Origin: Stramenopiles sp. TOSAG23-6
Lineage: Eukaryota
Assembly: GCA_900128565.1 (NCBI GenBank)
Contig: LT635944.1
Coordinates: forward strand, 1 to 35,463
Length of the DNA: 35,463 bases
Reading direction: 5' to 3'
Below, piece by piece: positions 1 through 19,775 of the stretch (the first letter of the stretch is position 1; the number at the start of each line of letters is the position of its first letter). The translations under genes and the position numbers were made by a program. The notes under the pieces were generated by a model that saw only the letters and a list, made by a program, of their open reading frames with translations, ran no database searches and was not told where the DNA came from.

Positions 1-910
1 GAATCTCCAGCCGACGAACCACTTGTAATCAATAAAGATCCACTCGCGCCATTTTCTGAATTTGCTGTCTTAAAAGAAGCTTTGCCACTCTCAAATCTAC
101 CTACACCACTCGACATACTTAAATCGCCACCACGAGATTTTTCACCTGCACTATCTCCAGCGGCAATAGCAATCAATCCACCATTACTGGAGCTGCTTGA
201 TCCACCTGATAAAAGTATGTCACCACCAAATCCAATCGAAGATGACCCACTTTTTAATGTAACTGTTCCAGTAGAACCCACGGATGAAGTTCCACTGCCA
301 AGGTTAAGAGATCCACTCACACCTGTACTGGAATTTCCAGTAGTAATATCTATTGAACCACTAGAATCCGCAGAACCAGTACCAATGCGAACTTCTCCAC
401 TTGATTTTGCTCCATCTCCTGAAGATATTGACACATCGCCACCATTAAACCCCTCTGCAAGTGCCGTGCCACCTGAAATATTTAAATGTCCACCATCAGA
501 AGATGTACTAGCCCCAACCGCAATCGATATATTCCCGGGTTTACGTGCGTCTCCCGTAGCAATGGAAATTTCACCGGAATTTCCGCTAGCTGCAGAACCA
601 GTAAAAAGTGAGATAGATCCACTTTCAGAATCTTTTTTTGTGATACTAGATGAAGCAACAATTACTGATCCACTTGAATGAGTACCTTCACCACTCAACA
701 CACCGACACTTCCTCCTGTTGATTCTGAAGATTTTGTGCTACCAGCAGAAATACTAATAGATCCTCCAGAACCATTTTTAGTATTTCCGACAGCAATAGA
801 AATCCCTCCTGCAGTACTACCCGAACTGCTACCAGATGCAATGGTCACATTTCCAGAATCTCCAGCCGACGAACCACTTGTAANCAATAAAGATCCACTC
901 GCGCCATTTT
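1..910. repeat. Near-exact ~55 bp direct repeat (1-55 and 856-910), 855 bp apart, inside the giant CDS
   Basis: gaatctccagccgacgaaccacttgtaa(t/n)caataaagatccactcgcgccatttt at both places. Confidence 0.9.
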
Positions 911-3900
911 TTGTATCTGAGGATAAAAATGAAATACCCCCACTTGCAACATCACCATCACCTGATTTAAAAAACAATGAACCACCTATTAAATCTTCGG
1001 ATATACCTGCAGCAAGCAAAATATCTCCACCCTTGCCAAATTTAGATTCTCCAACATCAAAATGGATTGTACCAGCAGATTTACCATCGCCAGTTGAAAC
1101 TGTGACATTTCCGGACTGGCCATTTTTTGAATCACCACTATGCAAACTAAGAGCACCGCTTGTATCAGTGGAATTGGAACTGCTCAAAATGATGGTACCA
1201 CTTTTTTTACTCCCGTAACCAGACAACATTTGAATATCGCCGCCTTCACCATCCGCGGCTAAGCTCCCTCCGGCAGTGAGAAATACATTACCACCACTGT
1301 ATGATCCCATTCCACCAGCAATTGCAATATCTCCTGCTGAACTCTCCTTAGATACCCCTGAAGAAATTAGTATACCACCCGATTCATTTTCAGCATTACC
1401 AGTCGACATCGTAATAATTCCGCTAGCATCAGCGTTATTTTCTGATGATAGTGTCTTGTGAGTTTGAACTACGATGTTTCCACTGGCATCAACACCTTTT
1501 CCACTACTCAGTGACAGAGAACCACCGTGCGATTTCCTGGAAGTGCTCTCGCCGGCTGCTAAAGTAATATTCCCACCTTTGCCTTTGTCACCCGAACCAA
1601 CTGACATAATCACATTTCCTCCTGTCCCCCCTTTTGCTGATCCACTTTTAATTGATACTATTCCACTCGAAGCATTGTTTGCATCACCACTTGCAATATT
1701 CACAGCACCGCTACTTCCATTTTTTGACGAACCACTACTGACAGAAATTGACCCAGACGAGGCCTTTGTAGACTTGGACATTGGGGTAGAGATGTAAATA
1801 TCACCACTTGAGTTACTTTCACTACTACCAGATCTGACAAATACGTTTCCGCCTCGTCCAGTGAAAGATTTACCACCAGAGATGGAAAAACTACCACCGG
1901 TGCCAGATGAGCTATTTCCAACTTCAATGGACACATGACCTGCTGTAGCTGCATCCCCGGAACTAATTTGAACGTTCCCTGAAACTCCATGGGTCACAGC
2001 GCCAGATGAAAAAGTAAGATCACCTGACTTTCCATATTGATGAAGGTCGCCGCTAGCGACTTCTACAGATCCGCTAGATGACTGACCTTGACCACTTAAT
2101 AAATGAATACCACCACCAATTCCATCTTTAGCCGTTGTAGATCCACCTGCGAGACGAACAAGTCCTCCATTTCCAGTTCCACTTTTCCCCGAAGACACAA
2201 GAATTGCCCCGCTATTTCCACGAACAGCATCACCAGATCGAACGGATACAGTCCCAGAATTGCCAGCGTCTGAGGCCCCAGTAGATATAACTGTTGATCC
2301 ACTATTACCTTCGGCAGACATACCAGTGGTGACAACAGAGTTTCCACTTTCGCCTTTATGTATACTCTTTCCACTTGTTATGCGTATCGATCCGCCAACA
2401 CCACCATCTTCGCGAGTTTCACCACCAACGATTGCAACAGAGCCTCCAGCACCAGTAGTTCCAGATCCAGCAGCAACAGCGATAGAACCACCAGCCCCTC
2501 CTTCAGCATTTCCGGTTCGAAGTGACAGTCCCCCACTTGATGAACTTTCGGAGTCACCACTCTTCAAGAAAATATCACCACTGGGGTCTAATTCACTTGA
2601 CCCTGATGCAACAACTATGCTGCCACTTACACCGACACCTTCAGTATCGGCGGTTGATAATATGACATCGCCAGAGGACGTACCTGTACTACTTCCTGAA
2701 CGCAACACCACACGACCACCGCTAGAGGAAACTGAAGAGCCAGCAACAAGTAAAGCATCCGTTGCTGTCAATTTCAACGATGCAGACGGTACCCCCGAAT
2801 TTGTAGAACCTACACCGACCAATACGTCGCCAACAACATGGTTTTGAGTATCACCAGAACCAATATATACAGAACCAGAAGTTGTAGATTGTGTATCACC
2901 TGAACGAAGAAGAAGTTTTCCACTTGTACCGTGACCTCGGTTGACACTTGCGGTCTCAATTGCAATTTCTCCACTCGGGCCATTTTCACTCACACCACTT
3001 TGCACTGTAATAGATCCACCAACGCTTGACGATGTTTCACCTGCCGAAAAAGATATACTTCCGCCCAATCCTTCACCGCTAGCACCTCCAATAAAATTCG
3101 TAGATCCTGCATTGCCTTCTGATGCATCTCCACTGCCTAGTGTAATATCTCCGCTGTCACTATTTTCTGAATGACCACTTTTTATAAAAATGCGCCCTGT
3201 TGCGCCACCCTCGCTTGAATCCCCAGTGCCGATTTCCAGTGCACCACTGTCACCACGGTCAGTAGCTGCAGACTTAACTGTAACATAACCACTTCTGCTT
3301 GCACCTCCACCGGAATGAAGTGTAACTGCGCCACCAACATGTCCACCAGACCCAGCGTGTATCTGAACATCACTGCCAGAAATTTCCTCACTATCGCCGC
3401 TTTGAAGATAAACAGATCCAGCGGAAACTGAATCACCGGAAGATATTGAAACCTTACCGGAACTCTGTTCGCTATCCCCAGTTGAGAGGGATAAGGAGCC
3501 ACTATTCAGAGATGACTTTGCAGTAGCAATTTCAGTGTCTCCGCTAATTCCCCCGACACTGCCCCCGGACAGAAGCTCAACATGACCACCGCTTACACCC
3601 CCCTCTCCAGCTTGAATCTTCACACTACCGCCATCTTTGCCAGCCGATCCTGCTACAAAAACCATATTTCCTGAATTTCCATTATCTGAATTACCAGTGA
3701 CAAATGTGATGTCGCCACTATTGCCAGTTTTCCCTTCGGAAGATTTGAATTGAATATCCCCACTTGATGCAGTTGAACTAGAACCGCTTTCTAATAATAC
3801 TAATCCGCCGATACCAGAACCCTTCGTGGCACCTGCTCGCATTACGATGTCACCACCATCCTCCTTTTCACTTGAACCAATGTTTACATTAATTGAACCT

Positions 3901-6900
3901 GCTTGGGAGTTCTTTGAGTGCCCAGTAGCAATCGAGATTGAACCAGACTCGTCACCAACGCCTGCTCCAGTACGTATTTGAATTCGACCAGAGCGTCCTT
4001 TTGAATTTCCGCCCATATACGATCCTGCATCAGCTGTGTTGATAGTAACGCCTCCACTTTCATCTGGCGTATTGGCACCAATTGTAAGACGACTTTGCTG
4101 CTCCTGAATAGCTGATAATAGATCTACACTAAGCTTTATTTTATTCACTTCGAAGAACTTTTCTCGATGAAAACCTTTATCTGGCAATGTAAAATTATCT
4201 GTGATATGAATATATTCAGGAAATATTTCATATACTTGCTGCGCAATAAAACCCCGCACGGGTCTGCCGACACCAACATCATCTGGCTTCAGATTCCGTA
4301 CTTTAGCCCAATCTTCAGTGTACCTATACTGCTTCATTTCAATCTGATTCAGTCGTTGTAAAACATCATTGTTATCCGAGTCCTCAATATCACGTTTAAT
4401 ACGCTTATCAGACGGTTGTAAAATAGTTGATGCCTGAACGGGAACATGGGCCAAAACTTTATCTTTCCACACGCGAAATACAGACGTACCTTCATCACCA
4501 CCCGAAGCAAGCTCGTGTTTAATAACAAATTCAGCGTCTTTATCTTTTAGATTAACAATAGCATCGAACCCTGTGTCAATTGTAATATCTTGTCCAGTGG
4601 CAGATGAAGCGTCAATAGCACCATCTGGGTTAATCGCAACTCGGGATGTCCCCGATGCATCCTTTAGAAGCACGCTACCACCTGAATACTTATCTGTTCC
4701 GCCACCAGGTTGAAGAATGACTGAGCCTCCTGCAGATGCGACTGAATTGCCTGCTTTCAGGTTGAGAGAACCGGCAACAGTTTTTGCATCACCGGTGGAT
4801 ACTTTCAAATCTCCAGAACGACCGCCAAGTGAATCGACAGTCTTAATTGTAATGTCCCCACTTGCTTTTGTTCCGATGCCACTAGCAATGTTGATACCAC
4901 CTCCAACTTTATCTTCTGCTGAAGTTTTACCCCCACTGATCTCAACCGTTTTACCATCGCCTTGTCCGGATTCTCCTACAATAATACTTATGGAACCTCC
5001 ACCAGCAGAGTTCGATGTCCCCGTTCCGACCAAAATATCACCCGACGATCCTTCTTTTGTGCCACCTGTTATTAGTTGGATATCTCCGCTATTTCCTATA
5101 TCTGTCGCTGCTGAAGCTATTTTTAAAAAGCCACTTCTAGCCATACCAGTACCAGTAGATATTTCGACACTTCCCCCTAAACTATCAGCTGCAGTTGTTG
5201 ACCCACTAGAAATTTTCACACTTCCACCATCAGCAGCATCACCAGAACCAACATTCATTGATATACCCCCACCTTCTCCACCGACAGCAGAGCCTGTAGA
5301 TATATTCACATTGCCTGAATTTCCTGTAGACGCTTTGCCTGTACCAATTGATATAGCACCACTGAGTGTACTATCAGCAGATATAATACTTATTACTCCG
5401 CTCGACTTACCCCCGCGACCACTTATCATGTCAATTTTTCCACCGTTAGCGGCACCAGATCCTGCAACGACAGATATTTCCGCACCATTACCCGTACCAC
5501 TGGAGCCAGCAGTTAAACTCACAGCGCCACCTGAACCTCCAGTACCTGATCCCGCTTTGAGTTTGATTGATCCAGATGCCCCCTCGCCTGTGTTAATAGT
5601 ACCAGTAGAAATGCTCAAATCACCACTATTTCCAATTGTTGCAGCATCTCCGGTGTTAACACTGATTGAACCGGATGTACCAGTTGAACCACTCCCAGTT
5701 TTAAGTGAAATTTTCCCACTCGTTGCTGAGTCTGGTGTTGCTAAATCAATTGATCCACTACTTACCCCACCCGAGCCACTTGAGAGGGAAACTAATCCAC
5801 CATCACCAATCTCTGCAATGGTGGTTTTACCCGCCGACATTACTATTTTACCACCAGGGCCCGTATTTCCAGTACCCACTGTAATTTCAATATTCCCACT
5901 AGCGCCACCTAATGATGCACCTGTGGAGATACTTACAGATCCCGTGGAACCTGTGGAAGAAGTTCCTGTATTTAACTTGATTCCACCAGTTAGAACAGAA
6001 TCAGCAGTTTTAACAACAATTGATCCACTTTTTGCACTTGTAGTACTCAGAGAAGATGCAGAACCCGAATTAATAATAATTTTACCCCCATTAACTTGAT
6101 CTGATTTGGTCGACCCAGCAATAATATTGATAGAGCCACCTTTTGCGACACTACTTTTTCCCACACCGATTTCAATGCCACCCGCTGACCCAAGAACAGC
6201 AGCACCAGTCAATAGAGAAATACTGCCAGTATTTCCAAGTGTTGAAGAACCTGTAGATAATTTGATTTGTCCACTTATTGTACCTGGAGATGTATCAATC
6301 TTAATATTTCCAGATGATTTTGCGATTTCATTTGTTGCAACACTGCCACTAGAAAGTGCAATATCGCCACCTAAACCAGATTTCGAAACACCCGATTTAA
6401 TTTTAACCTGTCCACCATTAACGGTATCACCAGATCCTACAACAATACTTATCCCGCCTCCTGTTCCCCCTTTAGACGTTCCAGTTTGAAATTGAATTCC
6501 GCCCGAGTTACCATCTGCTGTATTTCCAGTGCCTATAGTAACTGCTCCACTAGTACCCGTATTTTTTGCATTTTCAGTTTTAAGACTGAAGTCACCAGTT
6601 TTTCCTTCTTCCCCTGTAGAACCACCAGTTACCATCCTGACCATACCCCCAGTCGCACTATCTGCAGTTGCATCCCCGCTGGAAATGACAAAGTCGCCAC
6701 CTTTAGCAGATTCTGACTCGCCAACATTTAATTTGATACTTCCACTAGGTCCAGTTTTTGATGAAGATGTGGTCACTGAGATTTCCCCAGAACTACCAGT
6801 GGAAGATGTTCCTGTTTTTACCAAAATTCCACCGCTGATTGATTCTTTACCTGAGTTTGGAGTTGAAATAACGATGTTACCGGATGATCCGTTTTCACTA

Positions 6901-9900: not shown

Positions 9901-12900
9901 ATGGATATTTCGCCTGAATCTCCTTTGGTTGCGACACCCGTAGAGAGCGCAATAGAACCACTAACACCTTGGCTGCCTGCATTTTCTGAAGCAAGAACAA
10001 TATTACCACTACTCGTAGTGCTACCAAACCCAGATTTGATAAAAATAGAGCCACCTGACCCTTTTGATTCTGCCCCAGCAGTAATAACAATTCGCCCACC
10101 TGAGTTATCATCAGGTAGTGATGAACTTTCACCAGCAACAACTTCAATATCACCAGCACTACTGCCTGACGCGGCACCACTCTTCAACAATATTGAACCA
10201 CTACTGCCAGTATTTGCTGCCCCTGTATGCACTGTAATACTACCCGACCCCGAGGAGACGCGAGTGGCAGTTGCAGTCTCCAGTAAAAGTTCTCCAGATG
10301 TTGACTTATCTCCGGTGACTTTTCCTGTGCTTACAGAAATAGCACCCCCACTACCTGACGCGGCTGAAGTGAGACCTGCTTTGAGTGTGATATGACCACC
10401 GTTTGCACTACTGCCTTCTCCTACGATAATATTTATAGCACCTGCTGCTCCAACAAATTCTGCTTTCCCTGTGGAAATATCCAAATTCCCAGAATTCCCG
10501 GCGGTTGCCAATCCAGTTTTGATGGATGCAGACCCAGTTGATCCGTCACTTATCGCATCTGATGTAGCAATCAAAAGTGTCCCGCTAGACCCCTTCAACG
10601 GACTAAGGGATTTTCCTGTTGTAATGGATACATCACCTCCAGTTTTGCCAGTTGATGTGGTATTGCCAGCCTCAATAAATATAGAGCCACCTACTCCAGA
10701 ATTCCCCTGCCCAACTTCAAGTTTAATATCACCTCCTGCTCCATTAATAGCATTGCCAGTCCGAACTACAATATCCCCTGAGCTACCAGAGCTTGATGTT
10801 CCAGTGCGTACGTCAATAAGCCCAGTATTTCCTTCTGTGCCACCCTTCGAAGTGGAAACGTAGAGGGAACCACTTGAAGTTTGTGCACTCATTCCTGTCT
10901 TGAGACTGACACTACCACCTCCGAAACCGTCAGATGTATCCCCTGCCTGCATATTTATTGATCCACCTTCGCCAACTGTTCCAGACCCTACTACCATTGA
11001 CAAACTACCACCTTGGCCACTTGTAGCAGCACCAGTGGAAATCGCAAGGTATCCACTATTTCCCGTATTAGAAGTACCCGAGGACACATATATATTTCCA
11101 GATTTCATAGTTGATTTGCTTGCATCTATATCATTACCCGTTCCAATAAATACACTACCCGAGGAACCAACTGAAGACAAACCTGTTATCAAAGAGATTT
11201 CCCCAGATGTCCCGTCACTTGTTGTTCCGGTCGATATCTCAATTTTCCCGCTGACACCTGATACTCCAGCATTCTGTGACATTATGTGAATATTACCACT
11301 TGAAGATAGAAGTGATTTCCCTGATTCAATATGAATTAAACCCCCAGTGGCTTGAGTGCTTTCGGCCGTTGTTTTACCAGCTATAAGCTCGATATTACCT
11401 CCGGTTCCAGTATCACCCTCTCCAACAGTTACCTCAATATCGCCAGCATTACCACCTGTTGCTGTACCTGTCCATATTTTGAGATCACCAGTATCACCGT
11501 CTGTTGTGTTGCCTGTGAAGACATTAACATTGCCACTATCTCCTGGTTCTGTCAATGAACTACTACCCAAGTCGAACCCATTTTTAGCTTCCATTGAAAC
11601 AAATGTACTACTCAATTCAATTGTGGCTTTATCGTCATAATTTGCTGTGAGATATATATCACCCGCGTCCAAGGCAACTGCACCGCGTCTGCCATTTGAC
11701 ACACCATCTTTTTCGAGTTTCGGTGCCCCCCCAGTTATCATAGTAATGTTTCCTGAGTTTCCTCTGGTCGATTTACCTGTATCAAGCGAAATTGCACCAC
11801 TTACTCCTTTAGAACCAGCCGAATCTGTCTGGAGAGCAATACGCCCAGATGATGTGAATTGACTATTACCCGAGGAAAATAAAATTGACCCACCTGTCGA
11901 CAAAGATCCTGCAATCGTGCCACCAGCCTCAATTGCAACATTGCCACCCTTACCAACTCCAGATTTTCCTACTTGAAGAGATATTGCGCCACCTTGACCC
12001 TGTGTAGATCCACCAGTCTGTAGCAAGATCAAACCTGATGAACCCGCTTCTGAATCCCCCGTTGATAATTTAATCATACCTGTTCGGCCAAAGCTTGCAG
12101 TGCCAGTTTCAAGAGTGACATTTCCTGAAATTCCTTCAATGCCAGCATTCATTGATCTGATATCGAGATGACCTGAGGAAGTCTCCTGAGAAAAACCTGT
12201 GGCGATATTAATATGACCACCGCGTTCATCAGAGGTATTACCAGCTAAAATTTTGATGGCGCCACCATTTCCACGGGCCCCACTTCCAACAAGGATGTCA
12301 ATACCACCTCCACTTCCTTTATCAGAATCTCCTGTTGCAAGAAGAATACTACCTGAAGTTCCACGACTGGCAGTTCCAGTCTTCACATAAATTTCACCCG
12401 ATACCCCATTTATCCCTGAATTTGATGTAAAAATTTCAATATTGCCCGATGACGTACGTTCACTATGCCCACTCTCTACGGAAATAGATCCACCTGAAAA
12501 TGAACCTGTAATGATATCACCTGCTCTCAGTCTTATATTCCCACCAACACCAGAATCTCCTATGCCAGATATAATATTAATATTACCGCCACTTCCTCCT
12601 ACGGCTTTTCCAGAAGCTACAGTAATCTGACCAGAGTTTCCACGCGTTGATTTACCACTTGAAATTTGAATAGCACCAGAGACACCAGAAACACCAGCAT
12701 CCACAGACGCAATATGAATCATACCGGATGATGTATGTTTGCCAAAACCACTTGACATCTTGATATGTCCCCCAGAACCACCTGAAAGTAAGGTTTGGGC
12801 CTCACCTGCCGTCATAATAATGTCACCCCCAGGCCCAGAATTCCCCATTCCAACCAGAACTTTAAAATCACCACCGCTACCTCCTGTTGAAGCACCAGTA

Positions 12901-15900
12901 GTAATAATTATTTGACCAGAATTTCCTTCACTAGACGTCCCTGTGTCTAATGTAATATTACCACTAGTCCCTGATTCTCCAGCATTAGAAGTGATCATCT
13001 TCATGTTACCAGAATCAAAAAAATCACTGTAACCAGACGATAACTTTACATCTCCACCTTTAACCCCACGGTCTTGGTTTTCATCTAAAGATCGCCCGGC
13101 AACAACTTTCACATCCCCCCCATTAAAAGTATCCCCTGTTCCAACACTAATGCTAATATCACCACCGGAACCTCCCTTTGCAGTACCTGTATTCACGGAA
13201 AACTTCCCAGAGGAGCCAGCAGATGATGTACCAGTCGTTATTAGAGCATTGCCAGACACGCCTTCTTCGCCTGCATTATCAGTTTGGAGGATCATATTTC
13301 CACTGTGGAAACCACGACTAAATCCTGTTTTCACAGTAACGGATCCCCCCAGAACGTCAGCAGTAGTCTGATCTTCCGTGAGACCTGCAGTGAAATGAAT
13401 ATCTCCACCATTTCCAAGTTGCCCTGTTCCAACTTGCACTTCAATATTACCACCATGTCCTTTTTTGGCACTACCAGTTTCCAAAACTATAGCACCCGAT
13501 TCAACTCCTGTAGCATCGCCTGTGTTTAGACGAACATCCCCTGAAACACCCTTTGCACCAGAGTCGGCAGTATGAAGAATGATATTGCCACTAGATGTTT
13601 GGGTTGATTTACCTGTAATAAGTTCTATCAATCCACCCGAAACTTTACCCGAGCCAAGTGTATCACCAGCCGTCATTTGTATCACCCCCCCAGATTTCGC
13701 CAAGCCAGTTCCTACTTTGACCAATACATCTCCTCCATGACCCGCGACAGAATCGCCGGTTTTTATAGCAAATTGTCCAGATCTGCCGTATTGGGCCGTA
13801 CCCGTTGTTACTTGTACGGATCCAGAGACACCAGCAGCAGCTGAATTAGCAGTCGATAGAAATATTTGACCAGATGAGGTTGTTGCGCTTGCACCAGAAA
13901 CGAGGCTAATTGACCCCCCTGATGATGTTGCAGCAATACCTGCAATCATAGATATATCACCACCTCTATCTCCAGCACCTTCCCCGTATGCTTTACCACC
14001 TGTGAATTCAATATCACCCCCCTTTCCCCCACTTTTCGAGTTTTTGGAGCGACCATCGCCTCCGGTAATTGAAACAATACCCCCTGCTTTACTATCATGC
14101 GTGGTGTTACCAGCATACAACAGGATATCTCCACCAGGCCCTGTGTTTCCATTGCCAACAGTAACCATGACAGAGCCACCTCTACCATTTATAGCCTCTC
14201 CCGTTGTTAGGTACATCGACCCCGAGTCTCCTGCCGTTGAATTACCGGTTGTGAAGAGCATTGCTCCTGATACACCTGCGTTTCCAGCATTGGGAGTATC
14301 AATGATGAAATTTCCACTCGAAGTGGGAGTACTTCTTCCTGTTTTCATAAGAATAAACCCACCAGACCCAGAATCTGTGGTATCGCCAGCATAGAAGAGT
14401 ATATCACCACCGGATTGTTTATTTCCTTCACCAACTTTGACTTCAAAACGACCACCATGACCCCCAGATGCATTCCCTGTGGTTAGAATGAAATTCCCCG
14501 ACGTACCTTTACTTGATGTACCTGTACCAAGTTCAATGTAGCCACTGACACCCGCCAAACCTGCATTAGGTGTATCCAATTTAATACTTCCTGATGTAGT
14601 GGCCAGACCTTGACCAGTACTCATAGTAATTTTACCGCCAGTTCCACCGGCAGAGTCACCACCAATTATTTCAATGTTACCTCCATTATCATCCAACTTT
14701 GTCCCAGAACCATTTCCACCACTGATAATAATGTCACCACCACCGCTATACCCCCCCGTACCTTTTCCAGACCCACCCGTTAGATATACTACACCTCCGC
14801 TATATCCTGATTTTGAAGATTTTATAGTCGAATCCCCAGCTTTGATATTCACGGGGCTTCCGTTGCCACCATTACCAGATCCAACCATAAGCTCAATATC
14901 ACCGGCGTATTCTTTTTTTGATGATCCGGTCACCATATGAATGAAACCAGTGGAGTTTGATTTCTTTACACTGGCATTTCCTGTCGTAAAATTCATATAC
15001 CCACTGTTGCCATTGGCTCCAGCTGCGGCAGTAATAAGTGTAATATCACCCGATGATGTTGATTCTGAGTATCCCGAAGTCAGTGTAATGTTTCCACCAC
15101 GACCTGATGCGGCATCTCCACCTGTTAAAAGTATATCCCCCCCTGTGTTATAATTGCTTAAACCTTTTGCTTCTCCGCCGATGACAACGACATTACCACC
15201 AGTACCTCCATTTGACGAACTTTTACTCGATCCTTCTCCAGCACTTATCTGAACTTCACCACCGGAAGAATCATCATCAGATGTTAGACCGGCGCTTAAT
15301 ACAACATTTCCTCCATTCCCAGTATTTCCATTTCCAACAAGCATATCTATATGCCCACCACGCCCACCTTCAGCATTGCCTGTGGTAATTTTGACAAGAC
15401 CCGAGTTTCCTTTTGTTGATTTTCCTGTGTGAAATTCTAAAACCCCGCTAACACCAGCTTTCCCAGCATTAGCAGTATTAACAATGAAGTCCCCAGAGGA
15501 CCGCATTTGACTATAACCAGTTACAAGATTTACACTACCCCCACTAATCTTTGCATTTGTTGTTGTTCCTGCTTCTACCAGTATTTTCCCTCCAATGCCA
15601 GTTGTACCTGATCCAACTTTAAGCGAAATACTTCCACCCTGACCTAATGTTGCAGTACCAGTAGTTACTGTAATATGACCACTTTTTCCAGATGTTGTTG
15701 TTCCGGTGCTAATATCTATCTGCCCGGATACACCAGATTGACCTGCATTTGCAGTCCATAATTCTACATGACCTGAGGAACTGGCAATTCCTGAACCACT
15801 ATGCATGATCAGGGACCCACCACTACCTTTGCGCGACCAACCACCTGTAAGCTCAAGGTTTCCTCCTCTATCTAATATAGGAGAACCACCCATGGCACGA

Positions 15901-18900
15901 CCCCCAGTAATAACAATAGCACCACCATCACCGCCATTAATATTCGACTCTGAGGATCCTTCACCACCAGTCATCACAATTTTACCACCACTCATATATG
16001 CAGCGGTTGAATTCCCTGCATTTACAATGACATCACCTCCATTGAAAGTGTCACCAGTACCAACATACATCTCAATATTACCACCTGCACCACCTTTGGC
16101 ATCCCCAGAACGAAAAGAAAAGGAACCAGAATTTCCGGCACTGGTAGTACCTGTATTCAGTAGTATACTTCCGGAAATTCCAGATTCACCAGCATTGGGA
16201 GTATTGAGGTATACATTTCCAGAAGAAGAAAATGAAGAGTATCCACTATCAAGATTTATATATCCTCCGGAAGCTCGGTATGTTGTGTCTCCTGCGGAGA
16301 GTTTTAGGTAACCACCTGAACCAAAATCACCTTCACCTACCTTAATATCTATATATCCACCATTACCCCCAGTAGAAACACCTGATTTAAGATCTAAATA
16401 ACCAGAATTTCCAGAACTTGAAGTACCCGAAGCCAGTGTAATTGAACCTGATACCCCCCTAGTTCCACCATTTGCTGTGTTCAGTACAAACCTACCAGAC
16501 GAGGTACCAACAGATTGTCCAGTAGAAAATAATATTGAGCCACCAAAGCCCATAAACGCAGAGCCACCTGTGATTTCTACATTCCCCCCGTTATCTTCTG
16601 ACGCAGCTCCCATCGCTTCACCACCTCGGATCTCAATCATACCCCCATTGCCACCATCATGACTATGTGCAGATGAACCTTCGCCAGCTAAAATAGACAC
16701 CTTACCACCTACTGCTGCATTAGCAGATGTGCGACCACCAAAAAAGAAAAGATCGCCACCATTTTTATAATCTCCATCACCAACAGCAATAGTGATGGTG
16801 CCTCCTGGGCCAGATGTAGTTTTTCCCGTTTGAAGAGTCATTGAACCAGAAGAACCCGCAGTTGAGGTTCCAGTATATAGTGACATATCACCGCTAGTTC
16901 CACTTTCTCCTGCATTACTTGTAGACAAATTTACCGAACCACTAGAGCGATCACGACTAGTTCCACTTCTTAGAACAACAGATCCTCCAACTCCACCGAT
17001 TGCAGCACCACCAACAACCTCTACATTTCCAGCACTATCACCGGCAAATTCACCTTTTGACTTACCACCGGTAAGTCGTACTACACCACCATTTCCACCG
17101 TCACCAGCGTCAGTATTTGTACCCTCACCAGCATTGATGAAAACAGCACCACCAACAGCAGATTTCGCGAGCGTTGCACCAGCGTTAAGGGACACATCTC
17201 CACCATCACCTGTATCGCCAACCCCAACCATGATATCAATCGAACCCCCTGATCCACCTCTAGCATATCCAGTTTCGAAAGTTATACCCCCAGATGAACC
17301 ACCGGAAGATGATCCTGTATTAAGGGCAATATCACCACTTACACCATAAACACCAGCATCCATCGACATAAGCATAATATTCCCGGATGATGTACTAGTT
17401 CCTTCACCTGAGCGTAATGTTAATGTTCCACCAGTTGCGGTTGCCGACTTTCCACCATCCATGGAAATGTCTCCACCAAAGCCAACCTCGGCCCCACCAC
17501 CCTGCAACATAATGTTACCCCCTTCACCGGCACCAGAATGCGAAGAAGAAGTTCCACCATGTAATTGTACTGTTCCACCACTACCAGCATATGAAGCATC
17601 AGAATCACCGCCATATAATTGGACTTTTCCTCCTGACTTGAAGTCATCTGTTGTCTTACCAGCATTGATAGAAACTTGTCCACCATCCCCACTATCACCA
17701 TCTCCAACGGCAAGCAAAATCTTACCCCCAGTACCACTTTTGGCAGTCCCGGTTGAGATGCTTAAAGCGCCTGATATACCACCAGATGATGTACCAGATC
17801 CAATGACCACCTTCCCCGAAACGCCTGATGTTCCAGCATTAACACTACTAATATGGACTTCTCCACTGGACGATACAGAACTTGCACCGGACTGAAGTTC
17901 TAACGAACCCCCCGTTCCAGATACGGCACTTGTGGAGCCTGCTTTAAATCTCACTGATGATCCCGTCTTGGTATTGCTAGATCCTCCACTAATTTCGATA
18001 GTACCGGCAGCCCCGTCTATAGCATTCCCTGACATTAGGGAAATATTACCAGTAGATCCTGATTTTGAATCACCAGTTACCATTGACAGAGATCCAGTAG
18101 AGCCAGATGTATCTGCTGGAGCAGAGCCTATTGCCACATCTCCAGATCTAATTCCTTGGGACGCACCTGACATCATTTTTAGCGAACCACCGTCACCATT
18201 CACCGCAGCGCCACCGGATACTATGACTGTACCACCTGTATCCAATGTACCAAGTCCTTTGCTGCCCCCCCCACTTATATTTATTTCCCCACCACTCCCT
18301 CCATTATCGTTATCTTCACTATTTCCATCACCACCAGTGATATTAATTTTACCACCTGTGCTACCAGATGCACTAGTATCTCCTGCACCGAGGGTTAGCA
18401 TGCCCCCAAGATGGCCTGACATACTGGTTCCTACTTTGAGATCAATACCCCCAGCAGTTCCCGCGGATGTACCTGTTTTAAGCGATATAGCACCTGAGGT
18501 ACCCTCAGTCGATGTACCAGTCCAAAGGGAAACATCACCACTGGAACCTTGGGTACCACCATTTGACGAGCTTACCTGGATTTCACCAGAATGTTTACTA
18601 TCGGAGCTACCTGATTTTACAGATACATTGCCACCTGAATGACTTGGACTTGAGGTTGCTCCAGCAGAAATTTTGATTTCACCACCTTGAACAGCATTCC
18701 CGGACCCGACTTTTACACTGATGTTGCCACCATGCCCACCAGCGGATTCACCTGTTGTTAAAAAGAGAGATCCTGTATCACCTGCTGAGGATGCACCTGA
18801 TGCAATAGACACGTCACCACTACTACCACTACTACCAGCTTTTGCAGACATAATATTGACATCACCACTAGAGGAAAGTTCAGAAATTCCACTAACAAGC

Positions 18901-19775
18901 AGAATACGCCCTCCACTCATTGTGGCGGCAGTTCCCCCTTGGATTTTCACGGTGCCTCCATTACCTTCAGCTGAATCACCACCTTGAAGAAGTATCTCAC
19001 CACCAGCCTGACCAAGAGATCCAGTTTCAAAAGCAGCTTCACCATGTGCAGCACCACCAAAAAGATATATACTTCCACCCCCACCGCCATTTGCGGCAAG
19101 TCCATCACCAGCTGAAATATTCACAGATCCGCCCAAAGTGTTGACTTCATTCCGATCGCCAGCAGTCAACTTAATATCGGCTGCAGATTGCAATTTAAAT
19201 TGTGTATCATCTAAAATCATTTCAAAGCGGCGCCCACCTGATGCAGGCCCGGATACTTGAAAGTGTCCGCCTCCAAATACAGGGTCTTCTTCTACGATAA
19301 GGTTACCAACTACACGATTGATCCCAACGAAAGATGCAGGGCACGGCATATCGAAGACAGTGCCCCGACAATTTGTACTGAAAACATCAGCAACAGTCAT
19401 ACACTTATTCTCCGAAGCACACCAAGCACACTCATGTTTGTCGGCACAGCTCCCGCAAGTTTGGAATTCATGGCAAACTGGCATTACCGGGCACTCTTCC
19501 TCCAGGGAAACCCAACTGGGGCACGGAGACCCATCTTGGGGACCTATTGAATCTCCATCCATGCAAGTTAGTGTGGAAAGACAGTATCCACACCCCTGTG
19601 TACGAACACAACCTCCACAAACCTTTACTTCATCCCAATAAGGTCCATCTATACCATCATCGAAAGAAGCACATGTCTGTGCAGTGACTGAAGTTAAGAA
19701 AAACAGTGATATGAAAGAAGTTAAAACTATCATTATAAATTGTGTTTTAAGGCTAGCCCTTTTACTAAATACCAT
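3..19775 (-). CDS. Giant (>=6591 aa, 3'-truncated by window) predicted secreted Gly/Ser/Thr-rich repeat protein with N-terminal PSI-like domains and an internal peptidase S74 (intramolecular chaperone) domain
   Basis: ATG at 19775-19773 gives MVFSKRASLKTQFIMIVLTSFISLFFLTSVTA-QTCASF. The same frame (codon starts = 2 mod 3) holds at the S74 motif (4412) and at the left edge (...GASGSLLITSGSSAGD). All Pro-rich plus-strand shadow ORFs from 82 to 19318 lie in one register, so there is no frameshift. The ORF track lists no stop-terminated minus ORF in this frame. Confidence 0.93.
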   Translation of the reverse strand, partial: MVFSKRASLKTQFIMIVLTSFISLFFLTSVTAQTCASFDDGIDGPYWDEVKVCGGCVRTQGCGYCLSTLTCMDGDSIGPQDGSPCPSWVSLEEECPVMPVCHEFQTCGSCADKHECAWCASENKCMTVADVFSTNCRGTVFDMPCPASFVGINRVVGNLIVEEDPVFGGGHFQVSGPASGGRRFEMILDDTQFKLQSAADIKLTAGDRNEVNTLGGSVNISAGDGLAANGGGGGSIYLFGGAAHGEAAFETGSLGQAGGEILLQGGDSAEGNGGTVKIQGGTAATMSGGRILLVSGISELSSSGDVNIMSAKAGSSGSSGDVSIASGASSAGDTGSLFLTTGESAGGHGGNISVKVGSGNAVQGGEIKISAGATSSPSHSGGNVSVKSGSSDSKHSGEIQVSSSNGGTQGSSGDVSLWTGTSTEGTSGAISLKTGTSAGTAGGIDLKVGTSMSGHLGGMLTLGAGDTSASGSTGGKINITGGDGNSEDNDNGGSGGEINISGGGSKGLGTLDTGGTVIVSGGAAVNGDGGSLKMMSGASQGIRSGDVAIGSAPADTSGSTGSLSMVTGDSKSGSTGNISLMSGNAIDGAAGTIEISGGSSNTKTGSSVRFKAGSTSAVSGTGGSLELQSGASSVSSSGEVHISSVNAGTSGVSGKVVIGSGTSSGGISGALSISTGTAKSGTGGKILLAVGDGDSGDGGQVSINAGKTTDDFKSGGKVQLYGGDSDASYAGSGGTVQLHGGTSSSHSGAGEGGNIMLQGGGAEVGFGGDISMDGGKSATATGGTLTLRSGEGTSTSSGNIMLMSMDAGVYGVSGDIALNTGSSSGGSSGGITFETGYARGGSGGSIDIMVGVGDTGDGGDVSLNAGATLAKSAVGGAVFINAGEGTNTDAGDGGNGGVVRLTGGKSKGEFAGDSAGNVEVVGGAAIGGVGGSVVLRSGTSRDRSSGSVNLSTSNAGESGTSGDMSLYTGTSTAGSSGSMTLQTGKTTSGPGGTITIAVGDGDYKNGGDLFFFGGRTSANAAVGGKVSILAGEGSSAHSHDGGNGGMIEIRGGEAMGAASEDNGGNVEITGGSAFMGFGGSILFSTGQSVGTSSGRFVLNTANGGTRGVSGSITLASGTSSSGNSGYLDLKSGVSTGGNGGYIDIKVGEGDFGSGGYLKLSAGDTTYRASGGYINLDSGYSSFSSSGNVYLNTPNAGESGISGSILLNTGTTSAGNSGSFSFRSGDAKGGAGGNIEMYVGTGDTFNGGDVIVNAGNSTAAYMSGGKIVMTGGEGSSESNINGGDGGAIVITGGRAMGGSPILDRGGNLELTGGWSRKGSGGSLIMHSGSGIASSSGHVELWTANAGQSGVSGQIDISTGTTTSGKSGHITVTTGTATLGQGGSISLKVGSGTTGIGGKILVEAGTTTNAKISGGSVNLVTGYSQMRSSGDFIVNTANAGKAGVSGVLEFHTGKSTKGNSGLVKITTGNAEGGRGGHIDMLVGNGNTGNGGNVVLSAGLTSDDDSSGGEVQISAGEGSSKSSSNGGTGGNVVVIGGEAKGLSNYNTGGDILLTGGDAASGRGGNITLTSGYSESTSSGDITLITAAAGANGNSGYMNFTTGNASVKKSNSTGFIHMVTGSSKKEYAGDIELMVGSGNGGNGSPVNIKAGDSTIKSSKSGYSGGVVYLTGGSGKGTGGYSGGGDIIISGGNGSGTKLDDNGGNIEIIGGDSAGGTGGKITMSTGQGLATTSGSIKLDTPNAGLAGVSGYIELGTGTSSKGTSGNFILTTGNASGGHGGRFEVKVGEGNKQSGGDILFYAGDTTDSGSGGFILMKTGRSTPTSSGNFIIDTPNAGNAGVSGAMLFTTGNSTAGDSGSMYLTTGEAINGRGGSVMVTVGNGNTGPGGDILLYAGNTTHDSKAGGIVSITGGDGRSKNSKSGGKGGDIEFTGGKAYGEGAGDRGGDISMIAGIAATSSGGSISLVSGASATTSSGQIFLSTANSAAAGVSGSVQVTTGTAQYGRSGQFAIKTGDSVAGHGGDVLVKVGTGLAKSGGVIQMTAGDTLGSGKVSGGLIELITGKSTQTSSGNIILHTADSGAKGVSGDVRLNTGDATGVESGAIVLETGSAKKGHGGNIEVQVGTGQLGNGGDIHFTAGLTEDQTTADVLGGSVTVKTGFSRGFHSGNMILQTDNAGEEGVSGNALITTGTSSAGSSGKFSVNTGTAKGGSGGDISISVGTGDTFNGGDVKVVAGRSLDENQDRGVKGGDVKLSSGYSDFFDSGNMKMITSNAGESGTSGNITLDTGTSSEGNSGQIIITTGASTGGSGGDFKVLVGMGNSGPGGDIIMTAGEAQTLLSGGSGGHIKMSSGFGKHTSSGMIHIASVDAGVSGVSGAIQISSGKSTRGNSGQITVASGKAVGGSGGNINIISGIGDSGVGGNIRLRAGDIITGSFSGGSISVESGHSERTSSGNIEIFTSNSGINGVSGEIYVKTGTASRGTSGSILLATGDSDKGSGGGIDILVGSGARGNGGAIKILAGNTSDERGGHINIATGFSQETSSGHLDIRSMNAGIEGISGNVTLETGTASFGRTGMIKLSTGDSEAGSSGLILLQTGGSTQGQGGAISLQVGKSGVGKGGNVAIEAGGTIAGSLSTGGSILFSSGNSQFTSSGRIALQTDSAGSKGVSGAISLDTGKSTRGNSGNITMITGGAPKLEKDGVSNGRRGAVALDAGDIYLTANYDDKATIELSSTFVSMEAKNGFDLGSSSLTEPGDSGNVNVFTGNTTDGDTGDLKIWTGTATGGNAGDIEVTVGEGDTGTGGNIELIAGKTTAESTQATGGLIHIESGKSLLSSSGNIHIMSQNAGVSGVSGKIEISTGTTSDGTSGEISLITGLSSVGSSGSVFIGTGNDIDASKSTMKSGNIYVSSGTSNTGNSGYLAISTGAATSGQGGSLSMVVGSGTVGEGGSINMQAGDTSDGFGGGSVSLKTGMSAQTSSGSLYVSTSKGGTEGNTGLIDVRTGTSSSGSSGDIVVRTGNAINGAGGDIKLEVGQGNSGVGGSIFIEAGNTTSTGKTGGDVSITTGKSLSPLKGSSGTLLIATSDAISDGSTGSASIKTGLATAGNSGNLDISTGKAEFVGAAGAINIIVGEGSSANGGHITLKAGLTSAASGSGGAISVSTGKVTGDKSTSGELLLETATATRVSSGSGSITVHTGAANTGSSGSILLKSGAASGSSAGDIEVVAGESSSLPDDNSGGRIVITAGAESKGSGGSIFIKSGFGSTTSSGNIVLASENAGSQGVSGSIALSTGVATKGDSGEISIRTGNTESGRGGKINILVGKGDTVVGGRVSVNAGDSSDESGGSVNIQSGKGTATSSGNINISTPDAGNTGVSGAISVSTGSATDGNSGELDIRTGSATKGSGGSISLVSGKGVGGDGGHVSLTGGDSSNANGGGILLKTGISKEESSGSVLLTSANAGKNGVSGAIEISSGTASEENGNTGFVSLKTGDSEKGRAGGIRLEVGDSSNGIGGVINMMAGNVSSVSDSTGGKIFIMSGSSTQTSSGQISVVTADAGTSGISGNIAFSTGDATAGSSGEIQISTGTSNGGNSGNIQMSVGSSDTGVGGDININAGTALETASTGSGGKVEIKTGAGIATSSGNFNLGTSNAGISGVSGGVAISTGTSSSGTTGEIRIQTGKATGGSGGGIKIMVGEGDGGAGGAIKIEAGVTHHGHSVGGVGGATRIRSGQGLGEDAISGSVSITTANSGKVGHSGPLLLASGTTHHGNSGNVILQSGTATVGQAGYVQIKVGDGTVGEGGHVGVQAGDVLGTSGIVGTGGNVDIKSGFSVGTSSGNINIGTAKAGVSGVSGSIGISTGVSANGGSGEIRISTGDSTGGSGGVIKLSVGSASKSVGGNIKFTAGEATNSKADSTGGSVIVSSGTSATKASGKIHISTASAGKAANGMSGLLALSTGASMAGESGGISLKTGNSVGRGGGSISINVGTSDLSDASEKATGGDIVLKAGDVSPSEGDGGKLLITSGFSKTSSGDIDMFTANAGTEGTSGNMSLRTGTSSAGASGSFILSTGSAKKGAGNIRIASGSTENKAASGGDIAVEAGNVTGKGSGGKISLVTGKGDSTSSGMFGVSTADGGITGSSGAIVVSSGNAAVANSGSISFETGQSLGGSAGDIFLRVGSSSEGASGNLFFTAGNTTADATSKSGGIVDIVSGYSSLTSSGDIRLLTANSGEAGVSGTLLLATGTSNASTSGGIALTSGRAITGRGGDIVLNVGNGVGKGGNIEIIAGKTLGETQSGGKINLISGLSENGSSGNIVISTPNSGKESISGGILVKTGTSSTGSSGEISVTTSSSKTGPSGSIKLNVGESESAKGGDFVISSGDATADSATGGMVRMVTGGSTGEEGKTGDFSLKTENAKNTGTSGAVTIGTGNTADGNSGGIQFQTGTSKGGTGGGISIVVGSGDTVNGGQVKIKSGVSKSGLGGDIALSSGSVATNEIAKSSGNIKIDTSPGTISGQIKLSTGSSTLGNTGSISLLTGAAVLGSAGGIEIGVGKSSVAKGGSINIIAGSTKSDQVNGGKIIINSGSASSLSTTSAKSGSIVVKTADSVLTGGIKLNTGTSSTGSTGSVSISTGASLGGASGNIEITVGTGNTGPGGKIVMSAGKTTIAEIGDGGLVSLSSGSGGVSSGSIDLATPDSATSGKISLKTGSGSTGTSGSISVNTGDAATIGNSGDLSISTGTINTGEGASGSIKLKAGSGTGGSGGAVSLTAGSSGTGNGAEISVVAGSGAANGGKIDMISGRGGKSSGVISIISADSTLSGAISIGTGKASTGNSGNVNISTGSAVGGEGGGISMNVGSGDAADGGSVKISSGSTTAADSLGGSVEISTGTGMARSGFLKIASAATDIGNSGDIQLITGGTKEGSSGDILVGTGTSNSAGGGSISIIVGESGQGDGKTVEISGGKTSAEDKVGGGINIASGIGTKASGDITIKTVDSLGGRSGDLKVSTGDAKTVAGSLNLKAGNSVASAGGSVILQPGGGTDKYSGGSVLLKDASGTSRVAINPDGAIDASSATGQDITIDTGFDAIVNLKDKDAEFVIKHELASGGDEGTSVFRVWKDKVLAHVPVQASTILQPSDKRIKRDIEDSDNNDVLQRLNQIEMKQYRYTEDWAKVRNLKPDDVGVGRPVRGFIAQQVYEIFPEYIHITDNFTLPDKGFHREKFFEVNKIKLSVDLLSAIQEQQSRLTIGANTPDESGGVTINTADAGSYMGGNSKGRSGRIQIRTGAGVGDESGSISIATGHSKNSQAGSINVNIGSSEKEDGGDIVMRAGATKGSGIGGLVLLESGSSSTASSGDIQFKSSEGKTGNSGDITFVTGNSDNGNSGNMVFVAGSAGKDGGSVKIQAGEGGVSGGHVELLSGGSVGGISGDTEIATAKSSLNSGSLSLSTGDSEQSSGKVSISSGDSVSAGSVYLQSGDSEEISGSDVQIHAGSGGHVGGAVTLHSGGGASRSGYVTVKSAATDRGDSGALEIGTGDSSEGGATGRIFIKSGHSENSDSGDITLGSGDASEGNAGSTNFIGGASGEGLGGSISFSAGETSSSVGGSITVQSGVSENGPSGEIAIETASVNRGHGTSGKLLLRSGDTQSTTSGSVYIGSGDTQNHVVGDVLVGVGSTNSGVPSASLKLTATDALLVAGSSVSSSGGRVVLRSGSSTGTSSGDVILSTADTEGVGVSGSIVVASGSSELDPSGDIFLKSGDSESSSSGGLSLRTGNAEGGAGGSIAVAAGSGTTGAGGSVAIVGGETREDGGVGGSIRITSGKSIHKGESGNSVVTTGMSAEGNSGSTVISTGASDAGNSGTVSVRSGDAVRGNSGAILVSSGKSGTGNGGLVRLAGGSTTAKDGIGGGIHLLSGQGQSSSGSVEVASGDLHQYGKSGDLTFSSGAVTHGVSGNVQISSGDAATAGHVSIEVGNSSSGTGGSFSISGGKSFTGRGGNVFVRSGSSESNSSGDIYISTPMSKSTKASSGSISVSSGSSKNGSSGAVNIASGDANNASSGIVSIKSGSAKGGTGGNVIMSVGSGDKGKGGNITLAAGESTSRKSHGGSLSLSSGKGVDASGNIVVQTHKTLSSENNADASGIITMSTGNAENESGGILISSGVSKESSAGDIAIAGGMGSYSGGNVFLTAGGSLAADGEGGDIQMLSGYGSKKSGTIILSSSNSTDTSGALSLHSGDSKNGQSGNVTVSTGDGKSAGTIHFDVGESKFGKGGDILLAAGISEDLIGGSLFFKSGDGDVASGGISFLSSDTKNGASGSLLXTSGSSAGDSGNVTIASGSSSGSTAGGISIAVGNTKNGSGGSISISAGSTKSSESTGGSVGVLSGEGTHSSGSVIVASSSITKKDSESGSISLFTGSAASGNSGEISIATGDARKPGNISIAVGASTSSDGGHLNISGGTALAEGFNGGDVSISSGDGAKSSGEVRIGTGSADSSGSIDITTGNSSTGVSGSLNLGSGTSSVGSTGTVTLKSGSSSIGFGGDILLSGGSSSSSNGGLIAIAAGDSAGEKSRGGDLSMSSGVGRFESGKASFKTANSENGASGSLLITSGSSAGD
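4086..4412 (-). other. Peptidase S74 / intramolecular chaperone auto-processing (ICA) domain within the giant protein
   Basis: SDKRIKRDIEDSDNNDVLQRLNQIEMKQYRYTEDWAKVRNL...RGFIAQQVYEIFPEYI...FFEVNKIKLSVDLLSAIQEQQSRL. Contains the SDxRxK Ser/Lys dyad (Ser codon 4412-4410, residue 5122; Lys 4397-4395), the GxIAQxVxxxxP motif and a terminal AIQE helix. Confidence 0.9.
19341..19673 (-). other. Two tandem PSI (plexin-semaphorin-integrin)-like Cys-rich domains
   Basis: 16 Cys in two blocks of 8: C...CGGCVRTQGCGYCLSTLTC...CPSWVSLEEECP and CHEFQTCGSCADKHECAWCASENKC...C...CP. This matches the C-CxxC-CxWC-C-C-CP PSI pattern. Confidence 0.75.
19680..19775 (-). other. Predicted signal peptide of the giant protein (32 aa)
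   Basis: Basic n-region (KR..K), hydrophobic core FIMIVLTSFISLFFL, small-residue cleavage motif VTA|Q. Confidence 0.8.

Follow-up and report, generated by a model that had tools for sequence, protein, structure and literature searches.

A giant stramenopile open reading frame with an internal MYRF-type ICA domain as candidate for a secreted, self-cleaving trimeric beta-helix fibre

The 35,463-nucleotide stretch of Stramenopiles sp. TOSAG23-6 analyzed here (assembly GCA_900128565.1, contig LT635944.1, positions 1 to 35,463 of the forward strand; hereafter the window) contains a giant open reading frame (ORF) on the minus strand that runs over 3..19775 from its likely start codon, encodes at least 6,591 amino acids and has its 3' end beyond the window. 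From the N-terminus, the protein carries a signal-peptide-like segment, a Cys-rich head with a PSI domain, a very long array of 15-residue units, a non-repeat neck, an internal ICA (Peptidase_S74) domain and a second repeat array. Taken as a whole, we consider it probable that this is a native stramenopile gene for a secreted trimeric beta-helix fibre, whose assembly would be nucleated by the ICA domain and followed by self-cleavage.

The underlying open frame (window 3..19892, minus strand) comprises 6,630 codons with 0 stops and is still open at the low end of the window, whereas the other five frames of the same 19.9 kb contain 100, 296, 377, 434 and 581 stops, so the open frame is not a product of chance. 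Codon 40 (window 19775) is the first Met with a hydrophobic stretch after it, leaving at least 6,591 residues visible, and this Met40 is the upper coordinate of the stop-free minus-strand ORF that had been proposed at 3-19775 in a sequence-only reading of the window. Residues are numbered as in P0001, with residue i beginning at window 19892-3(i-1), and all features of the protein given below lie on the minus strand. Ten ambiguous bases occur in the window, one of which, an N at 884, falls inside the ORF and becomes an X at residue 6337. GC skew is -0.20 to -0.30 across the whole ORF versus about 0 to +0.2 outside it; the negative skew reflects G-rich codons on the minus strand and marks the extent of the gene. 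An antisense ORF of 460 amino acids within the giant ORF (window 4717-6099, plus strand) was dismissed as a gene; most likely it arises from the Gly/Ser codon composition of the opposite strand.

Words sampled from this DNA recur in public sequencing runs, at shares of 0.89, 0.84 and 0.71 in three seawater metagenomes of one other study and of 0.50 and 0.33 in two metatranscriptome libraries of one sample. Two further small runs may be the source of the DNA, and the analysis drew on runs other than X8-X12, whose shares are low (0.05-0.15). When the contigs of four public runs were aligned to window 1-20000, those of seawater metagenome X3 were found to span 854-3586, 3589-16378 and 16380-20000. 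The contig over 3589-16378 matches for 12,790 nt with 35 substitutions and 0 gaps, and another contig, of 5.3 kb, has 3.6 kb of its length on the compared stretch. No insertion or deletion relative to the window was listed in any of the four runs compared, and the frame thus stands in independent DNA. One joint in the X3 contigs, 6317->15730, has a shorter side of 20 letters and was taken as repeat noise. Contigs of the two RNA libraries fall in 30/30 and 29/30 bins at identities of at least 99%, without intron-like joints on window 1-20000, in line with the intron-free structure proposed earlier; given that DNA can occur in RNA libraries, they provide a hint of expression as a single unspliced message. 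Their depth is lower in the last bin (19344-20000), a difference that is not interpretable. Tandem Repeats Finder reported no array on the DNA, and direct DNA repeats reach 60-77% identity at best; these repeats look old and diverged, and collapsed or inflated repeat assembly is not indicated.

One position departs from this agreement, an assembly branch point at window 832..884 (no strand) beside the N at 884, where contigs break and a repeat period of ~855 nt starts. Metagenome contigs of X3 and X4 break at 853-883, a separate 7,584-nt metagenome contig terminates on 832-882, an RNA-library contig links 855 back to 1, and window 1-107 is 77% similar to 856-962. The simplest reading of this branch is a higher-order repeat of ~855 nt (285 residues) continuing past the window, and the full protein may be well over 6,600 residues. 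The search for an in-frame stop or misassembly, suggested together with the first description of the ORF, thus came up empty across 884-19775, where independent contigs match without indels and reproduce the ORF; the join of window 1-883 to the rest, at 832-884, is provisional.

The protein begins with a signal-peptide-like N-terminus (residues 40-72; window 19677..19775), formed by a basic n-region and then a hydrophobic segment. Kyte-Doolittle windows of 19 residues exceed 1.6 only at starts 47-54, which makes this the sole hydrophobic segment in 6,591 residues, and five homologues (P0152, P0153, P0155, P0156 and P0158) have similar hydrophobic N-termini. The signal peptide read from the sequence at the outset is supported as a signal-like segment, and it is from this segment that we infer secretion. 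All Cys residues after Met40 are confined to residues 74-184, in two sets of eight. The second set belongs to a PSI (plexin repeat) domain (residues 138-186; window 19335..19481), with PF01437 matching residues 140-176 at E 1.8e-6 and 28.6 bits, and at E 6e-7 and 30.2 bits when this module was searched alone (cut-off 23.1 in both cases). The first 8-Cys module (residues 73-137; window 19482..19676) has a PSI-like spacing after a long first loop and gives no PSI match alone at E up to 10. Of the two tandem PSI modules originally claimed, then, the second passes Pfam and the first is PSI-like through its Cys spacing only. The Cys of the first module are kept in every homologue covering it (columns of at least 70%; two rows are without the module), and four homologues show two PSI stretches each at a loose threshold (E up to 10). 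AlphaFold2 (AF2) gives this module a predicted local distance difference test score (pLDDT) below 50. After the PSI domain follows a conserved linker (residues 187-232; window 19197..19334) with invariant V, G, N, D and GGG columns in an 8-sequence alignment, found also in four metagenome loci (L003, L010, L021 and L022).

Most of the protein consists of two repeat arrays on either side of the neck and ICA domain. Array 1 (residues 233-5078; window 4659..19196) has ~309 units of ~15 residues, and array 2 (residues ~5271-6630; window 3..4082) has at least 81 and runs off the window. Autocorrelation of the protein sequence peaks at 15 residues, and 198 exactly spaced units give the consensus G-x-[IV]-x-[LIV]-x-[TSV]-G-x-[SGA]-x-x-G-x-[GS]. 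By strand motifs we counted about 309 units ahead of the S74 domain and 81 behind it, close to the earlier figure of ~320. The units are organized in super-repeats of ~92-97 or ~148 residues, with 6 or 9 units (multiples of three) in 22 of the 32 super-repeat intervals. Array 1 is interrupted by a non-repeat insertion of ~37 residues (2750-2786; window 11535..11645), seen as a 43-residue gap between strand motifs, which is a possible hinge. The protein is 22% Gly and 17% Ser. Pfam scans covering all 6,630 codons in seven pieces at E up to 0.1, with the head and S74 regions also scanned separately, found no family besides PSI and Peptidase_S74 above cut-off; Kelch_2 reached 19.7 bits, under its cut-off of 21.3, and was dismissed. 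The repeats themselves match neither a Pfam family nor a PDB sequence, and a repeat profile searched against PDB sequences gave chance-level hits only (E ~0.5). N-x-S/T sequons are fewer than expected over window 3-19676 (45 versus 79 +/- 8 in 200 composition-preserving shuffles). This depletion suggests selection against N-glycosylation of the rod, and agrees with a closely packed helix produced in the secretory pathway.

Between the arrays lie the neck (residues 5079-5160; window 4413..4658), a non-repeat beta region conserved in the family, and the ICA/Peptidase_S74 domain (residues 5161 to ~5270; window 4083..4412). Homologues align from the neck through the ICA, and neck residues take part in the interface of the modelled trimer described below. 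PF13884 matches residues 5161-5227 with E 3.1e-13 and 50.3 bits (cut-off 22), over profile positions 1-56 of 58. An internal S74 domain with Gly-rich repeats on either side had already been recognized by eye, and it is present with both its Ser and its Lys in place. The best solved relative is the ICA of MYRF (MyRF; 7dc3), found at E 2.3e-15 with a family profile and 1.1e-8 with the single sequence, whereas solved phage ICAs gave marginal matches (E 0.06-0.12), reaching 0.1 by profile and 0.063 by single sequence. Judged by these sequence comparisons, the fibre ICA is nearer to that of MYRF than to any solved phage ICA. The 7dc3 sequence aligns over the whole domain and places the predicted nucleophile Ser5161 (window 4410-4412) on MyRF position 587, which is Ala in the crystallized S587A construct, and the predicted dyad residue Lys5166 (window 4395-4397) on K592. 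Previous work on MyRF reports that S587A and K592A each abolish cleavage, that these residues correspond to S911 and K916 of endosialidase endoNF, that cleavage needs the trimer and depends on its geometry, and that trimerization of the ICA is driven by its C-terminal coiled coil (PMC8326128). In our family alignment of 32 rows, 25 have the Ser, the others having Ala (5), Gly (1) or Asp (1), and 29 have the Lys; Ser also occupies 94 of the 104 motif sites in the 150 best matches and all 22 distinct sites in metagenome ORFs. Conservation at this level argues for selection on catalysis, and an autoproteolytic cut would most likely be made just before Ser5161. Behind the ICA the repeats start again at once, in the fibre protein as in its homologues, and the 1,470 residues after the ICA that lie in the window contain no hydrophobic segment, the C-terminus being outside.

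Complex prediction with three copies of residues 4965-5295 (three runs, with three controls) returned an ipSAE of 0.92 in each run and 0.00 for the best control, so that the homotrimer postulated before any modelling is what the model predicts. Partner pLDDT is at least 88, the runs share at least 98% of contacts, and about 1,500 contacts are inter-chain. In a calibration, the ipSAE mark was reached by 21 of 30 proteins solved as one-chain pairs and by 0 of 23 single-chain proteins. The predicted trimer is parallel, with in-register contacts at residue 294 of all chains. Through the repeats, low-error contacts pair residue n of a given chain with n-15 in one of its two partners and n+16 in the other (such as 3:94 with 1:79 and 2:110, 2:65 with 3:50, and 2:50 with 3:36). 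This offset by one unit means that each face of the model is built from three chains in rotation, with one 15-residue unit per face, which suggests an intertwined triple-stranded beta-helix, and super-repeats of 6 or 9 units would fit whole numbers of its turns. An AF2 model of a repeat monomer (287 residues, with seven paralogous rows not overlapping the target) has a pLDDT of 68.7, a predicted template modelling score (pTM) of 0.60 and no strand or sheet by DSSP; such a strandless model is what would be expected of one chain lifted from an intertwined helix, unlike a single-chain solenoid. Foldseek found 0 matches to this monomer in the PDB at E up to 10. In a wide VIA fold search, five of 48,161 chains reached Z of at least 2, the top matches being streptococcal phage hyaluronidase tail fibres (Z 4.1 with a root-mean-square deviation of 4.7 Å over 186 aligned residues, then Z 3.8). 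With one unit per beta-layer at 0.48 nm, the 309 units before the ICA would form a rod of ~150 nm, the fibre length estimated at first sight of the sequence, and the 81 units after it a rod of at least 39 nm, both values depending on the fold.

To assess the distribution of this protein, we searched the ICA region (residues 5029-5340, comprising the neck, the ICA and the first following units) against 1.8 billion representatives and obtained 284 matches at E up to 1e-3; tightening the threshold to 1e-10 and 1e-30 left 112 and 36, respectively. Many of the matches align across the neck, ICA and resumed repeats. Among 30 matches looked up, those with names are from Phytophthora infestans (PITG_01491), Aphanomyces euteiches and Aphanomyces astaci; the rest are metagenome or transcriptome pieces, plus two records labelled as 'archaeon MAG tail fiber' (MAG, metagenome-assembled genome). 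The latter (P0072 and P0034, in full 'archaeon MAG tail fiber domain-containing protein', located on 3.5-kb and 3.0-kb contigs) are 31-32% identical over neck, ICA and repeats and are probably eukaryotic contigs binned into archaeal MAGs. With the head (residues 40-339) as BLASTP query, seven longer relatives were found, including A. astaci and A. invadans proteins, of which six are 41-47% identical and P0158 is 34% identical. Protein-level homologues across species share 34-52% identity.

A scan of metagenome contigs added 43 loci with GC contents of 0.44-0.69. In one of them (L001), two ICA sites lie within one continuous 5,183-codon frame that is open on either end, and the 2,804-codon frames of L016-L019 carry two such sites at a distance of 1,913 residues. 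In the four loci that share the linker (L003, L010, L021 and L022), a PSI head is encoded 5.5-6.5 kb upstream of the ICA, on the same strand. P0002 (1,767 residues) contains three neck-plus-ICA modules, the second and third with Ala and Asp in place of Ser. We conclude from these loci and proteins that head-rod-neck-ICA-rod is a conserved architecture of variable length in which the ICA can recur. The ICA spacing of ~1,913 residues was seen in two different locus groups of GC-rich relatives (L016-L019 and L040), which hints at a fixed module length in these relatives. In addition, ORFs of the GC-rich loci stop where introns seem to lie at conserved positions, in one case immediately behind the Ser motif of the ICA. 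These ORF ends resemble intron borders and not protein termini, and the loci showed no readable C-terminal anchor.

No giant relative (3,625-11,535 residues) of the ICA region was found, and this lack of a full-length giant model fits with gene predictors breaking such genes. Among 2.9 million viral contigs there was only one weak relative, 31% identical over 82 residues, compared to 43 in metagenome contigs with nearly the same pattern. Prokaryote genomes yielded no relative among 153 pattern matches, which is weak evidence given that the patterns are very specific to the query. Literature searches combining S74/ICA with eukaryote, oomycete or stramenopile terms returned no description of the family, the one link being the paper on polinton-like viruses (PMC12220804), although supplementary tables of expression or proteome data may mention members, and the accessible text of Li et al. 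2013 (PMC3742443) does not mention such proteins. The family is real and eukaryotic, is shared with oomycetes, is common in marine metagenomes and stands in databases as unnamed fragments. The novelty supposed for the protein has to be adjusted in part: we found no paper on the family, but the protein is not unique. What appears to be new is giant secreted fibres of cellular eukaryotes with an internal, sometimes repeated MYRF-type ICA and a predicted triple beta-helix of thousands of residues, which we did not find in print; the ICA module and its logic are already known from phage fibres and MYRF.

The genomic setting is that of a cellular gene. Neighbouring genes are cellular and eukaryotic, encoding an LMBR1 protein (E 1.8e-68), a polysaccharide deacetylase, a CN-hydrolase and two large EF-hand proteins. 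GC content at third codon positions (GC3) is 0.26 in the giant ORF and 0.26-0.31 in five neighbours, and synonymous codon use is similar; the higher overall GC of the ORF is due to Gly, Ser and Ala codons and not to foreign origin. The cellular neighbours and matching GC3 mark the ORF as a native nuclear gene. Scans of nine window proteins, with only one flank of the ORF visible, turned up no capsid, packaging or integrase family. The best relative of the CN-hydrolase is 94% identical and bears a label suggesting an uncultured marine stramenopile, the next named ones being labyrinthulomycetes and oomycetes at 54-57%, and the runs that contain the DNA are seawater samples. The eukaryotic origin assigned earlier is thus upheld by the LMBR1, CN-hydrolase and EF-hand neighbours and by a CN-hydrolase closest to stramenopile proteins, and the host looks to be a marine heterotrophic stramenopile.

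These results can be combined into a model of how the fibre may be made, in which the ORF, its domains, the family and the native codon usage are observed, the trimer and the intertwined fold are predicted, and secretion, cleavage and role are deduced. A secretory precursor of at least 6,591 residues would enter the endoplasmic reticulum (ER), where the internal MYRF-type ICA would trimerize through its helices and set three parallel chains in register, countering slippage among thousands of near-identical units. From the ICA towards the N-terminus, the upstream 15-residue units would then zip up, as in phage fibres, into an intertwined triple-stranded beta-helix in which every unit lays a single strand on a single face and a full turn takes three units. 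In this way, ~309 units would yield a ~150-nm rod carrying the Cys-rich PSI head at its N-terminal end. The Ser5161-Lys5166 dyad would next cut the chain in front of Ser5161, releasing two trimers: one of head plus rod, with ~5,090 residues in each chain, and one with the ICA at its start, followed by a rod of at least 81 units. With recurring [rod-neck-ICA] modules, from one to three or more per polypeptide, the precursor would be a fibre polyprotein. The most likely role is that of an extracellular or cell-surface filament, such as one in adhesion, prey contact or as a component of a flagellar or surface hair. That the PSI head forms the 'tip' is conjecture; phage fibres have their distal, receptor-binding end beside the ICA chaperone. 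A possible link to stramenopile flagellar hairs is attractive because such hairs form within the perinuclear/ER continuum and carry thin filaments, both lateral and terminal (PMC2108286).

Several points weigh against this model. The trimer score may reflect memory of solved ICA trimers, its calibration was made on two copies and not three, and the family alignment was not used in the trimer model. The fold matches are weak (Z about 4) and possibly due to chance, and count only as a hint. For the head, the AF2 model is poor (mean pLDDT 46 with 8 sequences), the PSI block alone reaching 74-82. Cleavage is evidently not universal in the family, with 7 of the 32 ICA rows lacking Ser. RNA-library contigs are no proof of transcription since DNA can be present in such libraries, and a C-terminus outside the window means that an anchor, extra ICA modules or other domains would escape view.

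Among other explanations, the same trimeric fibre may be left uncut, with the ICA serving as a permanent trimerization and registration knot in a rod of at least 6,600 residues. We regard this as unlikely, though a serious contender: the Ala and Asp in modules 2 and 3 of P0002 and the seven non-Ser rows speak for it, the repeats resume after the ICA helix in all relatives seen so that the domain is never a disposable C-terminal tail as in phages, and MyRF cleavage is reported to depend on the geometry of the trimer (PMC8326128). Against it, both dyad residues are present and aligned with those whose mutation abolishes MyRF cleavage, and the frequencies of Ser (94 of 104 sites in the best 150 matches) and Lys (29 of 32 rows) speak for a dyad in use. 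A monomeric Gly/Ser-rich coat or mucin-like protein, either a single-chain beta-solenoid or disordered, with the S74 domain as a relic, would account for the 22% Gly and 17% Ser, the repeats without a Pfam or PDB sequence match and an AF2 monomer of only moderate confidence. It is nevertheless very improbable in view of the strict 15-residue unit with alternating Ile/Leu/Val and invariant Gly positions, the grouping of units in threes, a monomer model without intrachain strands, the ~1,500 inter-chain contacts that run through the repeats in the trimer model, and a conserved ICA with an intact dyad.

The gene could also be the fibre gene of an integrated virus, whether a giant virus, a polinton-like virus or a virophage. 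Polinton-like viruses of protists have S74-tipped modular fibres of up to 3.9 k residues (PMC12220804), and viral clusters are among the nearest in an Atlas feature search. But the neighbours on the visible side are cellular, with no capsid, packaging or integrase families in the nine proteins, GC3 and synonymous codon use equal those of the neighbours, the signal-like start and PSI head are conserved in oomycete nuclear genomes, and the single weak relative in 2.9 million viral contigs contrasts with 43 in metagenome contigs, leaving a viral gene only a slight chance. That the frame is an artefact of assembly, or stays open by chance in low-complexity DNA, is barely credible. The one N, the branch at 832-884 and the small size of possible source runs could be cited for it; against these stand 0 stops versus 100-581, contigs of 12.8, 2.7 and 5.3 kb from another study that match without indels, and homologues sharing 34-52% protein identity across species. 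For 884-19775 the artefact is excluded, which leaves the 832-884 join as the one place where it may still apply.

Of the known systems, MYRF (7dc3) provides the best solved ICA relative. It shares the dyad positions and has its ICA internal, after a beta-helical trimer stalk, with cleavage parting an N-terminal trimer from a C-terminal piece. There are also differences. The fibre protein has no Ndt80-type DNA-binding domain (Pfam, all 6,630 codons) and no transmembrane segment in the 1,470 residues after the ICA, its C-terminus being outside the window; the N-terminal part of MYRF is cytosolic or nuclear, whereas a fibre with a signal-like start should be luminal or extracellular; and the MYRF stalk has few turns compared to thousands of residues in the fibre. 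To our knowledge, the ICA module is known in cellular eukaryotes essentially from MYRF alone.

Phage fibres assisted by an ICA domain in forming a triple beta-helix are textbook material, and phage tailspikes and fibres of the endosialidase endoNF, GA-1 gp12 and T5 pb1 type share the family PF13884 with the protein described here. However, the phage ICA is terminal and disposable, while that of the fibre is internal with a rod after it, and the fibre is encoded by a cellular gene with a secretory signal. The fibre protein is also 5 to 10 times longer than phage fibres. In the phage systems, the chaperone trimerizes, templates the triple beta-helix upstream of it and cuts itself off at a Ser-Lys dyad (PMC8326128). 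The streptococcal prophage hyaluronidase tail fibres HylP1/2/3 (2c3f, 6wv2 and 2wb3) are the only solved chains with any likeness to the repeat monomer model, at Z 4.1, 3.8 and 2.6; these Z values are weak, identity is 9-14%, the repeat sequence is unrelated and the fibre protein shows no sign of lyase activity. HylP-type tail fibres are the textbook triple-stranded beta-helices. Likeness to trimeric autotransporters with YadA-like head repeats was suggested by a repeat of ~15 residues. The Hep_Hag/YadA head repeat families gave no match at E up to 0.1 in the seven pieces, and the C-terminus, where such proteins carry a membrane anchor domain, lies outside the window. The S74 fibres of polinton-like viruses resemble the fibre protein in being large, eukaryote-associated and equipped with a chaperone-of-endosialidase domain (PMC12220804). 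They differ in having their S74 domain at the C-terminus, in their laminin-G, collagen-like and adenovirus-fibre modules and in belonging to viral elements (PMC12220804), as opposed to the distinct 15-residue unit, internal ICA and cellular context found here.

Mastigoneme proteins are alike in being secretory and extracellular, as the fibre protein is presumed to be, and the taxa with named family members make tubular flagellar hairs. Known mastigoneme shaft proteins (Pnmas1/2 and the Mas/Ocm/SIG type) are EGF-motif proteins. In the fibre protein, no EGF-family match was obtained by Pfam over the 6,630 codons, and Cys residues occur only in the head. The names Pnmas1/2 are given for mastigoneme shaft proteins in the introduction of a bioRxiv 2026 preprint.

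The finding points to a family of giant secreted eukaryotic fibres with an internal, repeated ICA. It is present in marine grazers of high abundance and in oomycetes, some of them major pathogens of crops or animals, where annotation has its members only as short pieces called 'hypothetical' or 'Peptidase S74 domain-containing'. Genes of this kind are broken up systematically in standard gene models. If the model is true, the family would be a candidate for unidentified stramenopile surface or flagellar filaments, would show a natural way to hold three 5,000-residue chains of near-identical repeats in register, and would offer a closer relative for the origin of MYRF's self-cleaving domain. 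It is, in our view, a strong lead both on a class of eukaryotic surface fibres yet to be studied and on the history of the MYRF domain, limited by the missing 3' end. A further-reaching and doubtful proposal is that the family is the missing protein of a conserved stramenopile surface filament, either the thin terminal or lateral filaments of tripartite flagellar hairs or a prey- or host-contact fibre, in the form of a micrometre-scale triple beta-helix made as a polyprotein whose repeated MYRF-type ICA modules would register every rod segment in the ER before separating the segments by cleavage, and at the same time the ancestral extracellular source of the animal and amoebozoan MYRF ICA, as opposed to a direct phage-to-MYRF transfer.

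Elsewhere in the window, three large intron-free ORFs were noted at 25653-28550 (minus strand, 965 residues), 28855-32595 (plus strand, 1,246 residues) and 32704-35202 (minus strand, 832 residues). EF-hand matches occur in two of them, and the 965-residue ORF is without any Pfam family. Two shorter plus-strand ORFs in the same frame, at 22794-23327 and 23352-23870 (177 and 172 residues), flank eight N (23350-23385). The ORF at 22794-23327 has the polysaccharide-deacetylase match (E 7.3e-14), and the two are probably one gene split by poor sequence or by an intron.

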